Assembly (NCBI GenBank): GCA_017959645.1
Contig: JAGDAE010000205.1
Location: 1-31,556 of the forward strand
DNA length: 31,556 nucleotides
DNA from: Kiritimatiellia bacterium
GTDB lineage: Bacteria > Verrucomicrobiota > Kiritimatiellia > RFP12 > UBA1067
Direction: 5' to 3'
Shown here: positions 28,145 to 31,556 of the stretch, piece by piece
Layout: every line of letters starts with the position of its first letter
Numbering within the stretch: position 1 is the stretch's first letter
Program-made: the position numbers and the translations under genes
Notes under the pieces: generated by a model
The model's input: only the letters and a program-made list of their open reading frames with translations
Told to the model about the DNA's origin: nothing
Database searches by the model: none

Positions 28145-29044
28145 ATGCCGGCGGATGAAGGTGGACGCGGCTCCGTCTTTGCGGAGCCGAAGCGCGGGCT
28201 GGTGCTGGAGGGCGGCGGCATGAGGGGACTGTTCACCGCCGGCGTGCTAGACGTTTTCATGGAAAACGGCGTGAGGTTCGACGGTGTGATCGGCGTCTCG
28301 GCCGGCGCCTGTTTCGGATGCAACTACAAGAGCGGACAGATCGGGCGCGTCATCCGCTACAATACCCGTTTCGCGCGCGATCCGCGCTACTGTTCATGGT
28401 CGTCGCTTGCGCGGACAGGCGACCTTTTCGGCGCCGATTTCTGCTACCGGGAGCTTCCGGAGACGCTCGACCCGTTCGACACCGGGGCATACGGGAAAAG
28501 TCCGGTGCGCTTCCATGTCGTCGCCACCGACTGCGATACCGGCGAGGCCGTCTACCGCCGTCTCGACCGCGCCGACGCGGATGCCTTTCGGTGGATTCGC
28601 GCCTCTGCGTCGATGCCGCTCGTTTCGCGTCCGGTCGAGATCGACGGCCGGCGCTATCTTGACGGAGGGCTTTCGGACGGCATTCCGCTCGGCTATTTCG
28701 AATCGATCGGCTATTCCCACAACGTGGTCGTCGCCACCCGTCCGCACGGATACCGCAAGTCTCCCTCCTGGCGCCTGTGTCTCGTCAAGCCGTTCTTGCG
28801 CAGTTGTCCGGCGGTCTACGATGCGCTCGCATCGCGCCATGTCCGGTACAACGCCACCCTCGAATACATAGACCGCCGCGCCGGATCCGGCGACGCCTTT
28901 TTGATCGCCCCGGAAGAACCTTTGCGCATAGCGCGCGTCTGCCACGATCCTTCGGTCATGCGCATGATCTACGAAACCGGTCGCCGTGCCTGCGTCAAGG
29001 TGCTTGATGGGGTGAGGGCATTTCTTTCGCCGGCAGGCGCCTGA
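28145..29044 (+). CDS. Patatin-like phospholipase
   Basis: Gly-rich LEGGGMRG, nucleophile elbow GVSAG, ASASMP, catalytic DGG. Confidence 0.93.
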   Translation: MPADEGGRGSVFAEPKRGLVLEGGGMRGLFTAGVLDVFMENGVRFDGVIGVSAGACFGCNYKSGQIGRVIRYNTRFARDPRYCSWSSLARTGDLFGADFCYRELPETLDPFDTGAYGKSPVRFHVVATDCDTGEAVYRRLDRADADAFRWIRASASMPLVSRPVEIDGRRYLDGGLSDGIPLGYFESIGYSHNVVVATRPHGYRKSPSWRLCLVKPFLRSCPAVYDALASRHVRYNATLEYIDRRAGSGDAFLIAPEEPLRIARVCHDPSVMRMIYETGRRACVKVLDGVRAFLSPAGA

Positions 29045-29130
29045 ACGCGTTTGCCATCCTCACCATTCAGAGCGATGCAATCGCGAATGCCGGTATGGGC
29101 GGAAATATTGCCTATAATGGGGTTTGTTGC

Positions 29131-29276
29131 AACTGCCGTCAGTTCGCTATTGAACTGACGGCAGATTGGGTGTGAACTGACGGCAGTTGCTATGTGTTCT
29201 GCCGTCAGTTTGTATGTCAACTGCCGTCAGTTTGGGTGCGAACTGCCGTCAGTTGGAGGTGCATCTGCCGTCAGTT
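29131..29276. repeat. Array of seven 14-bp quasi-palindromic boxes (AACTG-CCGT-CAGTT) with 8-bp variable spacers, exact 22-bp period
   Basis: Boxes start at 29131, 29153, 29175, 29197, 29219, 29241 and 29263. Copies 2 and 3 are in reverse orientation. Confidence 0.95.
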
Positions 29277-29394
29277 GAAAATATGCGCGCAGTGGCAAGT
29301 TGAAAACGGCTCCAGACCCGGTGATTGCCTAGTGCCTATTCTACCTCAATGCGCATTGACACCACCCGGCCATCCGCATTCCTTAAATTCGCAC

Positions 29395-29424
29395 TTGATT
29401 TCGGGCGAAGAGAAATGGTATACT
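29395..29424 (+). promoter_or_regulatory. Putative sigma70 promoter (TTGATT - 18 nt - TATACT, with TG extension)
   Basis: -35 TTGATT 29395-29400; TG 29416-29417; -10 TATACT 29419-29424. Predicted start near 29431. Confidence 0.65.
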
Positions 29425-29430
29425 ATCTGC

Positions 29431-29651
29431 GTTCGGTCGAGGAGCAATCTGCTTCGAGGCTGGATACCAGAATTCCCGCGCGGGAGAGGCGTGTCGCCGA
29501 ACCGCGTTTGGGATGCGTCACGAGAAAGCTTAGGAACCTTGCTCTAAGGGGGCAACAATGAGGACACTGCTGTCCATGGCAGTTTCGCCTCCTTCGTTGT
29601 GTTCTTTAAGGTAATCCTAAGCACCTCTCGTGATGCACCGGAGGAGGTGCT
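29431..29651 (+). ncRNA. Candidate structured 5' leader or ncRNA (four-way junction plus long rod hairpin)
   Basis: Complementary segments read by eye (see findings). It matches no RNA family I can recognise. Confidence 0.4.
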
Positions 29652-29711
29652 ATCCATGTCTGCCGTCTCCGGTTGCGGAATCCGACGTGGAAAAAAACGG
29701 GAGGGATGGGT

Positions 29712-31556
29712 ATGGTTTCAAAGTTGCAGAAGATGGCTGGCGCCATCAAGATCGGATGGCGAACGCGCTGTTCGATCTCCATTGCGGCAGCAGTGCTTTC
29801 TACGGCGTTTCAGATCCAGGCCGCCGAGGTCGCGCCGGAGCAGGCGCAGACCGCTGTCGGCAACTGGCTCAGACTCGGTTCGCGGCGGGCAGGCGCGTCG
29901 TTCCGGTCGAAAGACGCCGCGAGCGTGAGGACGGTTCGCGGCAAAACGGGGCGGGCGGTCTACCATGCGGTGGACATCAAAGGGGGAGGTTTCGTCGTCA
30001 CATCCGGCGACACGAGGCTGCCGCCGGTTATTGCGTTTTCCGACGAAGGCCGATTCGCCGATGACGGGACGGGCGCATTCCATGCGCTGCTCAGCAAGAG
30101 CCTCGCTCCGGCGACGGAAGCGCTTGAGCGTTCCGACCGACAGGCGGCGTCGTCGTCCGCCGGCGTGCGCAAAGCCGGAGATTCCGGTTCCGCGGTTGCG
30201 GAATGGGCCGAATTGCTGGCGCCGTCCGACGGCCGGCAGGCAAGGACAGGCGGGAGCCGCAAGGACTTGCTCGCCGACGTGCGCGTCGACAAACTGCTCA
30301 AGACGGAGTGGGGCCAGAGCGGAATCTCCATCTGGAACTGGAACGACGCCATAAACGATTGGGAAGAGACGTACTATCCGTCGTTCGACTATTATATGCC
30401 CAAATCCGGCGAGGATAGTTATCCTTGCGGCTGCGTCGCCACGGTCGGCGCGCAAATAATGAAATACTGGCGGATGCCTTCTGGCGCTGTTGCGTCGTTC
30501 TCCAACACGTGCAGTGTCGAAGGGGTGCCGGTCGTGAAGGATTCCATTCCCGGCGCTTTCGACTGGGATGCCATGTATCTGAAATGGGACGTGGACGATC
30601 CGGTTCCGTCCGAAGTGGCACGGGAGGCGGTCGGCAAGCTTACGTACAATGTCGCCGTCGCGGTTGGAATGGAGTGGGGCAAATGGTACGGCAGTTCCTC
30701 GCCGATCGATCTGATGGATGCCTTGAAGGACAAGTTCGGCTACGCATCGGGAACGTTCGTCTGGCATGATCAAACGGCGTTCGACATGCCTGGCTCGATT
30801 GACATCCCGGACTTCGCCGAGCGGATGTATGATTTCTACAGTGCGCTGTACGCGAGTCTGGATGCGAAGATGCCGGTGATTCTGTCGATCGACGGCGACT
30901 TCGGCGGCCACGCCGTCATCGCCGACGGCTACGGCTACAGCGGCGGCAAACGCTACACCCACTTGAATTTCGGGTGGTACGGCGGAGACGATGCCTGGTA
31001 TTTTCTGCCCGACGAGACGCTACTTGTCAGCGACGACAAGGAGACCTATTCGGTGTTTGAAGGCATCGGCTTCAATATTCATCCGGACAAAGTCGGCGAC
31101 GTCCTCTCGGGCAGGGTGATTGACGCCAATAAATTCGCGGTGGCGGGCGCCACGGTCGGGCTATACGACTCGGCGGACAATTTAATAGAGGAAACGACCT
31201 CGGACGCCAGAGGGATATATTCGTTCAGAATCACCGCCTCAGGCGACTACACGGTAAAGGCTTCGCACGCCGCCTCGGCCGAAACGCCATCGAAGTCCGT
31301 CAGCATGGCAAGTCCGAGCAAGAGCGGATCGTTCAGTGCAGGCAAGTCGGAATCATGGGCTGGATGGAGCGGCAACAATTGGGGCGTCGAATTGAAATTC
31401 CCAACGGTCATTCCAAGTACCACGCCAAGCGGGCCCGACAAGTTCACCGTCACGTTTGACGGCAACGGCGGCAGCGTTTCGCCGGCGTCGATCGAGGTCG
31501 TTTCCGGCGAGAAGGTGGGCGACGCTTTGCCGGTTGCGACGCGCACGGGCTACGAG
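29712..31556 (+). CDS. Secreted C10-family cysteine protease (streptopain-like) with propeptide, carboxypeptidase-regulatory-like domain and InlB B-type repeat; 3'-truncated by the window
   Basis: Absent from the ORF track because no stop occurs in the window. Hand translation gives a signal peptide, propeptide GGGFVVTSGDTRLPPVIAFS, LLKTEWGQ, catalytic YPCGCVATVGAQIMKYW (Cys codon 30432-30434), GGHAVIADGY (His codon 30909-30911), HLNFGW, and FTVTFDGNGG...LPVATRTGYE. ATG 29706 is an alternative start. Confidence 0.9.
   Translation, partial: MVSKLQKMAGAIKIGWRTRCSISIAAAVLSTAFQIQAAEVAPEQAQTAVGNWLRLGSRRAGASFRSKDAASVRTVRGKTGRAVYHAVDIKGGGFVVTSGDTRLPPVIAFSDEGRFADDGTGAFHALLSKSLAPATEALERSDRQAASSSAGVRKAGDSGSAVAEWAELLAPSDGRQARTGGSRKDLLADVRVDKLLKTEWGQSGISIWNWNDAINDWEETYYPSFDYYMPKSGEDSYPCGCVATVGAQIMKYWRMPSGAVASFSNTCSVEGVPVVKDSIPGAFDWDAMYLKWDVDDPVPSEVAREAVGKLTYNVAVAVGMEWGKWYGSSSPIDLMDALKDKFGYASGTFVWHDQTAFDMPGSIDIPDFAERMYDFYSALYASLDAKMPVILSIDGDFGGHAVIADGYGYSGGKRYTHLNFGWYGGDDAWYFLPDETLLVSDDKETYSVFEGIGFNIHPDKVGDVLSGRVIDANKFAVAGATVGLYDSADNLIEETTSDARGIYSFRITASGDYTVKASHAASAETPSKSVSMASPSKSGSFSAGKSESWAGWSGNNWGVELKFPTVIPSTTPSGPDKFTVTFDGNGGSVSPASIEVVSGEKVGDALPVATRTGYE

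Follow-up and report, generated by a model that had tools for sequence, protein, structure and literature searches.

Seven short boxes, spaced at exactly 22 bp and set in both orientations, lie in front of a C10 peptidase gene of a Kiritimatiellia bacterium, and the question raised by this locus is what the boxes are for and what, if anything, binds them. We analyzed the whole stretch of 31,556 nucleotides that contains them (here called the window; contig C184 in the numbering of its source genome, G000). The source is a metagenome-assembled genome (MAG) of 306 contigs that is 76% complete and has a GC content of 62%. Its ThrRS is nearest to that of ruminant-gut Kiritimatiellae MAGs, and the organism was found in many ruminant gut DNA sequencing runs. 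An initial annotation, made from the letters alone, had proposed either a cooperative protein-loading platform or a repeat noncoding RNA (ncRNA) at an accessory-region junction.

The box array and its cassette

The seven exact 10-bp cores, CTGCCGTCAG or its reverse complement CTGACGGCAG, start at positions 29133, 29155, 29177, 29199, 29221, 29243, and 29265 and follow the strand order + - - + + + +. In 100 versions of the window shuffled by dinucleotide, this core count was never reached, and TRF also reported a 22-bp array, which bears out the initial description of seven boxes with an invariant core and an exact period. The six 8-nt spacers described there were confirmed when the array was reread, as were a TATAAT 12 nt before box 1 and the lack of a rep, par, cas, or recombinase gene near the array in the window, where Pfam assigned the neighbors to patatin-like proteins and C10 peptidases. 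The full box is a 14-bp quasi-palindrome, AACTG-N4-CAGTT (AACTG-CCGT/ACGG-CAGTT), which is followed by an 8-nt spacer. The features of this part of the window are as follows.

28145-29044, + strand: upstream gene, patatin-like phospholipase with DUF6363 (Pfam)
29064-29130, + strand: promoter module P1, with the -10 element TATAAT at 29113-29118 and AAATATTGCC before it, without a TTGACA-type -35 element
29131-29276, + strand: seven-box array, second module of the cassette, after P1
29131-29144 (+), 29153-29166 (-), 29175-29188 (-), 29197-29210 (+), 29219-29232 (+), 29241-29254 (+), 29263-29276 (+): the seven 14-bp boxes, with 8-nt G+T-rich spacers between them
29277-29361, + strand: cassette tail, 89% mean pairwise identity, ending in the palindrome TCAATGCGCATTGA
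29395-29424, + strand: second promoter-like site P2 (TTGATT, 18 nt, TATACT, with TG), outside the cassette
29673-31556, + strand: downstream gene, secreted-type C10 (streptopain-like) peptidase (Pfam), cut by the end of the window

Blastn and alignment delimited a cassette of ~300 bp (29064 to 29361), in which the array is preceded by a promoter module of 67 bp and followed by a tail of 85 bp. The cassette begins 20 bp past the stop codon of the patatin-like gene. The P1 module, with a mean pairwise identity of 87% among six copies, shares an AAAT..TG..TATAAT style with the purB and thrS promoters of the window; it was not listed by a generic sigma-70 scan of the window because it has no -35 element. 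The start codon of a small open reading frame in the tail was not conserved among the copies (alignment, by eye), and the 14-bp perfect palindrome at the end of the tail (29346 to 29359) is a member of a second dispersed box family. P2 begins a leader of ~230 nt that is common to another locus: positions 29356 to 29653 are 84.5% identical to G000:C256:2160-2462, a module of ~300 nt with a TTGATT-18-TATACT promoter and a long leader. Therefore, the regulatory region of the window is a mosaic of two repeat modules. On C256, the module that here fronts the C10 peptidase gene stands before an unrelated signal-peptide gene. The peptidase gene encodes an I69 propeptide (inhibitor), CarboxypepD_reg, and Flg_new repeats (Pfam) and has a single distant paralogue in the MAG, on C208. 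As a candidate target, it might be reached by read-through from P1; judged from the sequence, regulation of this gene by the window copy is possible but falls somewhat short of probable.

The initial annotation had taken the array for a one-off at an accessory-region junction, an assumption that did not hold. Searching the genome, as had been suggested, identified 50 exact cores, 47 of which lie within arrays on C41, C105, C163, C184 (window), C196, C207, and C262. An eighth array is truncated by the end of contig C29, which brings the number of cassette copies in the MAG to at least eight. Six of the arrays comprise seven boxes and one comprises six; read on the majority strand, the orientation patterns are +-+++++ (three arrays), +--++++ (window), +-+--++, +++++++, and ++++++. 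Beyond the cassette, the sequences of the copies are unrelated, except for ~260 bp common to C105 and C262 (81% identity). All eight cassettes sit behind a co-oriented gene, and tabulation of these genes revealed unrelated functions (patatin, MacB/FtsX, LicD, glycogen debranching enzyme [glgX-like], PanC, SASA esterase, Pta, and GH127). Co-orientation also holds for the three downstream genes that are known (C10 peptidase, DUF4153 membrane protein, and an HU+Ig gene on C163), and the loci include chromosomal contexts with dnaG and thrS. In two independent metagenomes (DNA runs), the contig depth on the cassette was ~10 times that of the unique flanks. Blastn against 116 other genomes of the same genus gave no real match to the cassette. 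A search for the exact two-box pattern across the genome, metagenome, and viral contigs yielded only chance singletons and unrelated perfect 22-bp minisatellites, which differ from the array in that their spacers are identical from unit to unit.

This distribution might be that of a selfish element, an intergenic repeat dispersed in the manner of BOX, REP/BIME, or MITE sequences, with no host function and with the HU-Ig gene as its part or target. Many intergenic copies (at least eight, with ~10-fold read depth) are a trait of REP, BIME, and MITE elements, the copies occupy neutral-looking spots after unrelated genes, and many contigs break there. The absence of the cassette from the other genomes searched and the presence in G000 of ~30 loci of several phased-box families also agree with such spread. 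However, no convincing terminal inverted repeats or target duplications were found at the ends of the G000 cassette, the 76%-complete MAG contained no match to the Y1/RAYT transposase (PF01797), and the boxes are conserved far above the spacers, promoter, and tail (see below). We regard a purely selfish repeat as quite improbable; a repeat that spreads selfishly may also be bound by a protein.

Conservation and orientation of the boxes

Over 47 units, box positions 3 to 5, 7, 8, 10, 11, and 14 were invariant, and the spacer positions carried 0.05 to 0.75 bits. The mean pairwise identity of six close copies was 0.955 for the boxes, 0.888 for the tail, 0.869 for the promoter, and 0.762 for the spacers. 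A flip, described initially as the turning of individual boxes, changes only box positions 6 and 9. These two positions covary perfectly (39 units with C..T, 8 with A..G, and none mixed), and a flip is therefore a concerted two-base change. The flanking AA/AT/TT variants of the boxes stay put when the center flips, and no perfect-palindrome intermediates of the box center were found among the 47 units. The best reading is that a flipped box is the same duplex turned by 180 degrees. Because the arms are palindromic and a flipped box equals a rotated duplex, flips would be cheap, and a box can be aligned with any other box in either orientation.

A check for orientation heterogeneity had also been proposed initially, and such heterogeneity was found. 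Logan contig L192, from another sample, is the orthologue of the C163 copy (the encoded proteins are 99% identical). The two differ at 14 positions over 1,124 bp, and six of these differences are clustered inside 17 bp. In L192, this 17-bp patch turns box 2 from - to + and changes the spacer, and its sequence matches that of other boxes in the genome. The comparison points to short-tract gene conversion, not independent point mutations, as the origin of the flip. More generally, the genome has more than 50 boxes, and flips would result from conversion of short patches between them. Two paired changes that correspond to a flip of box 3, 29180 A>C and 29183 G>T, were seen in run contigs and may stem from paralogous copies; flipped centers were also present in G003, G047, G050, G055, and G072. 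The spacers of arrays with unrelated boxes (G000, G047, and G072:C55) share a T(G/A)TATG-like, G+T-rich flavor. Either a TA step that lets the DNA bend between sites or inheritance of the scaffold from one ancestral array might account for this likeness.

Transcription from P1 would turn the array into RNA, and the function might then reside in a leader or small RNA of seven hairpins (5-bp stem and 4-nt loop) that serves as a protein sponge or a structured 5′ UTR. The array lies ~5 nt past the predicted start site, the spacers are 70% G+T on the sense strand, and each box could form a small hairpin. However, + and - boxes pair as 14-bp helices, so the predicted folds of the copies differ radically: the window copy forms long helices (-103 kcal/mol, z of -5.5), whereas the copy on C196, whose boxes are all plus, is no more stable than its shuffled versions (-79 kcal/mol, z of -0.06). 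A multihairpin sponge RNA of the CsrB/RsmZ kind was rejected, as the structure is not conserved across copies. Rfam gave no real match, and the single hit, to mir-192, was spurious, below threshold, and produced by the hairpin between inverted boxes. Moreover, the homologous array of a relative often overlaps the core promoter (-35/-10) or precedes it and is then outside the transcribed region. Two sequencing runs labeled RNA are probably DNA. The proposed repeat ncRNA thus found no support, and an RNA-level element is very improbable. Taken at the level of sequence, the array is probably a DNA-level binding array.

An HU-Ig protein as candidate binder

The C163 copy is the most divergent one (78% identity to the others), with the same promoter and seven boxes; C163 and the window contig are joined only by MAG binning and the shared repeat. 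Its layout is promoter, 12 nt, seven boxes, ribosome-binding site (RBS), and ATG. An extended -10 element, the RBS, and the ATG fall within ~40 bp after the array and introduce the following gene.

G000:C163:4246-4968: HU+Ig gene, 240 aa, outside the window, directly behind the C163 array

The 240-aa protein matched Pfam HU-HIG (PF18291) below threshold (E of 0.006; 17 bits versus a gathering cutoff of 26.2), as it did TIGR01201 (E of 0.017), and a search with PF14734 gave no match; relatives P0003 to P0005 have weak PF14734 matches. A family profile built from the C163 protein and 11 relatives matched PDB entry 4FMR (BVU_2165) with an E of 3.3e-11 over 200 positions (hmmsearch) and classical HU/IHF chains with E values of 3e-4 to 1e-2. 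With an AF2 model (pLDDT of 85.7) as the query, Foldseek listed 4FMR first (E of 4e-14 over 241 columns); the N-terminal half matched HU proteins (TM [target] of 0.7 to 0.89) and the C-terminal half matched Ig-like folds. On the strength of these profile, AF2, and Foldseek matches, the predicted product combines an HU domain with an Ig-like domain, as in the HU-HIG clade. The Ig-fused subclade of HU-HIG (4FMR; PF18291/PF14848 plus PF14734) likewise combines an HU fold with a C-terminal Ig-like domain in ~240 aa and shows the same lineage-specific expansion, fast divergence, and tandem pairs as the Kiritimatiellae family. It has been described as a Bacteroidetes radiation with no DNA target given (PMC5499826), whereas the family studied here is from Kiritimatiellae, and its genes are associated with phased box arrays of their own. 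Apart from that study by Burroughs et al. (2017), the only mention of the HU-Ig family that we found in the literature was TDE_2259 of T. denticola, an uncharacterized gene of this kind (PMC12724145). A tandem pair of further HU-Ig paralogues lies at G000:C109:1-2122 (minus strand); the first is cut by the contig end, and the second (344 aa) has an extra C-terminal domain.

Of the 117 genomes of the genus, 46 contain HU-Ig genes, and a single genome may have as many as 11 copies. In a large protein library, the profile matched 2,192 clusters at 50% identity (805 at an E of ≤1e-10). The upstream 450 bp were scored for a chain of at least three exact 9-mers, on either strand, spaced by 20 to 25 bp or double that distance. 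Phased boxes were found in 27 of 40 HU-Ig upstream regions of the same genus (17/26 plus 10/14 for further paralogues), compared to less than 1% of the controls (9/2,000 random G000 windows and 2/230 windows from other parts of those loci); about one-third of the family members have no array under this strict criterion. Phased boxes are therefore associated with HU-Ig genes across the family. The same layout was present in five informative metagenomic relatives (34 to 37% identity or a profile E of ~1e-24 to 1e-29). G047 (seven boxes) and the metagenomic contig L269 have the order found in G000, i.e., promoter, six or seven boxes, RBS, and gene, and the HU-Ig gene's own promoter has, in many relatives, boxes on either side of its -35 and -10 elements. 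The 14 + 8 = 22 bp geometry recurs in G009 (AAGTG-N4-CACTT), G053 (AACTG-GCGG-CAGTT), and L269.

The (quasi-)palindrome of the box differs by lineage and by paralogue, with five kinds for five paralogues in G079 and three in G072. HU-Ig proteins that are at least 78% identical share a box; at 63 to 70% identity, the boxes differ by one to three bases, and at ~36% they range from unrelated to nearly the same. The G053 box is near-identical to that of G000, yet the protein is just 36% identical, and covariation of protein and box is therefore not strict. This recurrence of one architecture, in which dozens of homologous genes have different boxes but a constant register of boxes and promoter, argues further against a selfish repeat.

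Arrays with the HU-Ig gene's own box also occur apart from the gene. Such orphans number three or four in G047, two in G055, and one each in G009 and G053, and those in relatives lie behind gyrA, priA, an SNF2 gene, and mutL. In G000, the window copy and at least six others are orphan duplicates of the putative promoter-operator unit behind unrelated genes. No functional theme was found among the genes beside orphans (the G000 copies; gyrA, mutL, and priA in relatives). Therefore, any regulon role for the orphans is hypothetical, and titration, chromosome structuring, or purely selfish spread are possible roles. One orphan array with the G055 box (L225 [G055:C10], ~30090 to 30260 in contig coordinates) is bounded by near-identical, MITE-like inverted repeats of ~30 bp, which speaks for a selfish element and hints at how orphan arrays might move.

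The candidate binder at C163 and the family-wide association of boxes with HU-Ig genes favor the proposal of a cooperative protein-loading platform. We consider it fairly probable, on present sequence evidence, that the binder is the HU-Ig protein encoded at G000:C163:4246-4968. The array would then constitute an operator on which seven dimers of this protein could dock in a row, one on each 14-bp box. The 22-bp spacing of about two helical turns would place neighboring dimers on one face of the helix and allow cooperative binding. Lying ~5 nt past the predicted start site, a filled array could block initiation or elongation from P1. The C163 gene would thereby regulate itself, and the orphans, as copies of its promoter-operator unit spread around the genome, would be read out under control or would titrate the protein.

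The array might instead be bound by another factor, such as a global regulator or nucleoid protein, with the HU-Ig gene merely one regulated target. Burroughs et al. argued that the Ig domain narrows the HU clasp in 4FMR, which would leave it occluded, and that members of the family are unlikely to be sequence-specific factors (PMC5499826). This argument and the subthreshold Pfam scores count against HU-Ig as the binder, and an acidic D-x-D-P motif at the predicted arm tip of the HU-Ig protein is a further point in favor of another factor. However, a different regulator would be needed for each lineage and paralogue box (five in G079 and three in G072), whereas the adjacent HU-Ig gene is the one component that varies in step with the box. 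A separate binding factor appears distinctly unlikely to us.

Comparison with known arrays and further box families

The gamma origin of R6K contains seven 22-bp iterons, which are direct repeats at a single origin beside a rep gene. The window array agrees with iterons in its seven units and 22-bp period and differs in its mixed orientation, its occurrence at no fewer than eight loci, the promoter in front, and the absence of a rep gene. A plasmid replication origin was therefore rejected: no rep partner is adjacent (the neighbors are patatin and C10 peptidase genes), and the loci are chromosomal.

The omega heptads of pSM19035 and the ParR-parC systems of R1 and pSK41 comprise 7 to 10 short sites over a promoter, bound cooperatively by dimers in either orientation with autoregulation as a result. 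Their binders are ribbon-helix-helix proteins that have a ParA or ParM partner and are plasmid borne. The array resembles them as a row of short sites, direct or inverted, that abuts a promoter (TATAAT 12 nt before box 1), and cooperative dimer binding is predicted here as well. It differs by a predicted HU-like fold of the binder, chromosomal loci, a 22-bp period, and the lack of a partition partner. The initial analogy to omega sites was thus apt for arrays bound in either orientation but did not extend to membership: neither a parA/parM-type NTPase nor a centromere-binding gene was found by Pfam among the genes flanking three complete and five upstream contexts, and a partition centromere (parC/parS or omega sites) was rejected. 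A CRISPR array was rejected as well, since the box has 14 nt and the spacers have 8 nt and are shared between copies, in contrast to repeats of 23 to 50 nt with unique spacers and cas genes.

Pneumococcal BOX elements, E. coli REP/BIME, and "mobile promoters" are dispersed, modular intergenic cassettes, some of which carry promoters or IHF sites. The cassette likewise consists of a head, tandem internal units, and a tail behind unrelated genes. Unlike in those elements, the box is identical to those fronting a specific DNA-binding-protein gene (a putative operator), the internal units are fixed at seven (six in one array), and there is no link to a transposase or RAYT. With regard to the predicted fold, IHF and TF1 of phage SPO1 are HU-fold proteins that read specific DNA at single, bent sites of ~30 bp, and IHF sites are asymmetric, which resembles the CCGT center of the boxes. 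Neither phased arrays nor an Ig domain is a feature of IHF or TF1.

The HU+Ig family is large and has a solved structure (4FMR), and the sole published analysis argued against sequence-specific reading of DNA. If the rule holds that each HU-Ig gene has its own phased boxes in promoter register, the family would gain a testable DNA target and a mechanism, and its members would supply, ready-made by nature, many orthogonal pairs of protein and operator. The case described here adds that a putative operator unit, promoter included, can disperse around the chromosome. It also adds that quasi-palindromic sites flip between strains by local conversion, which would be a simple account of "flip-flopping" arrays. 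In its broadest form, which we put forward tentatively and hold to be rather unlikely as a whole, HU-Ig proteins would make up a very large natural collection of array binders that are sequence specific, orthogonal to one another, and fast evolving. One unit would here have been copied to at least eight loci, placing arbitrary genes such as that of the secreted C10 protease under its control, and the box orientation would be reshuffled between strains by short-patch conversion.

Further arrays were observed in G000 and in relatives. A scan of G000 for phased (20 to 25 bp) exact 9-mers returned ~30 loci of several families (CATCGGGATGG, CATATGAGGG, CCGGATGGGGGCTATTTTGACAC, and others), one of them at G000:C256:1990-2130, and the genome is unusually rich in phased box arrays. 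The 14- to 16-bp palindrome (G)TCAATGCGCATTGA(C) occurs 19 times at ~15 loci, among them the cassette tail in the window, C62, C77, C136, and C256, often in two or three copies at a distance of 23 bp with G- or C-rich spacers. This family may be the operator of another HU-Ig paralogue, namely, the C109 pair, whose upstream region is off the contig. Some HU-Ig genes have two different box types in a nested, symmetric order, as on L194 (positions 1 to 400) and upstream on L198 (G009:C66), where the outer boxes point inward and the inner boxes surround the -10 element; judged by this arrangement, the two types suggest control by two proteins. In G009, an array of CACCAAAT with an 11-bp period lies ~300 bp upstream of the HU-Ig gene.
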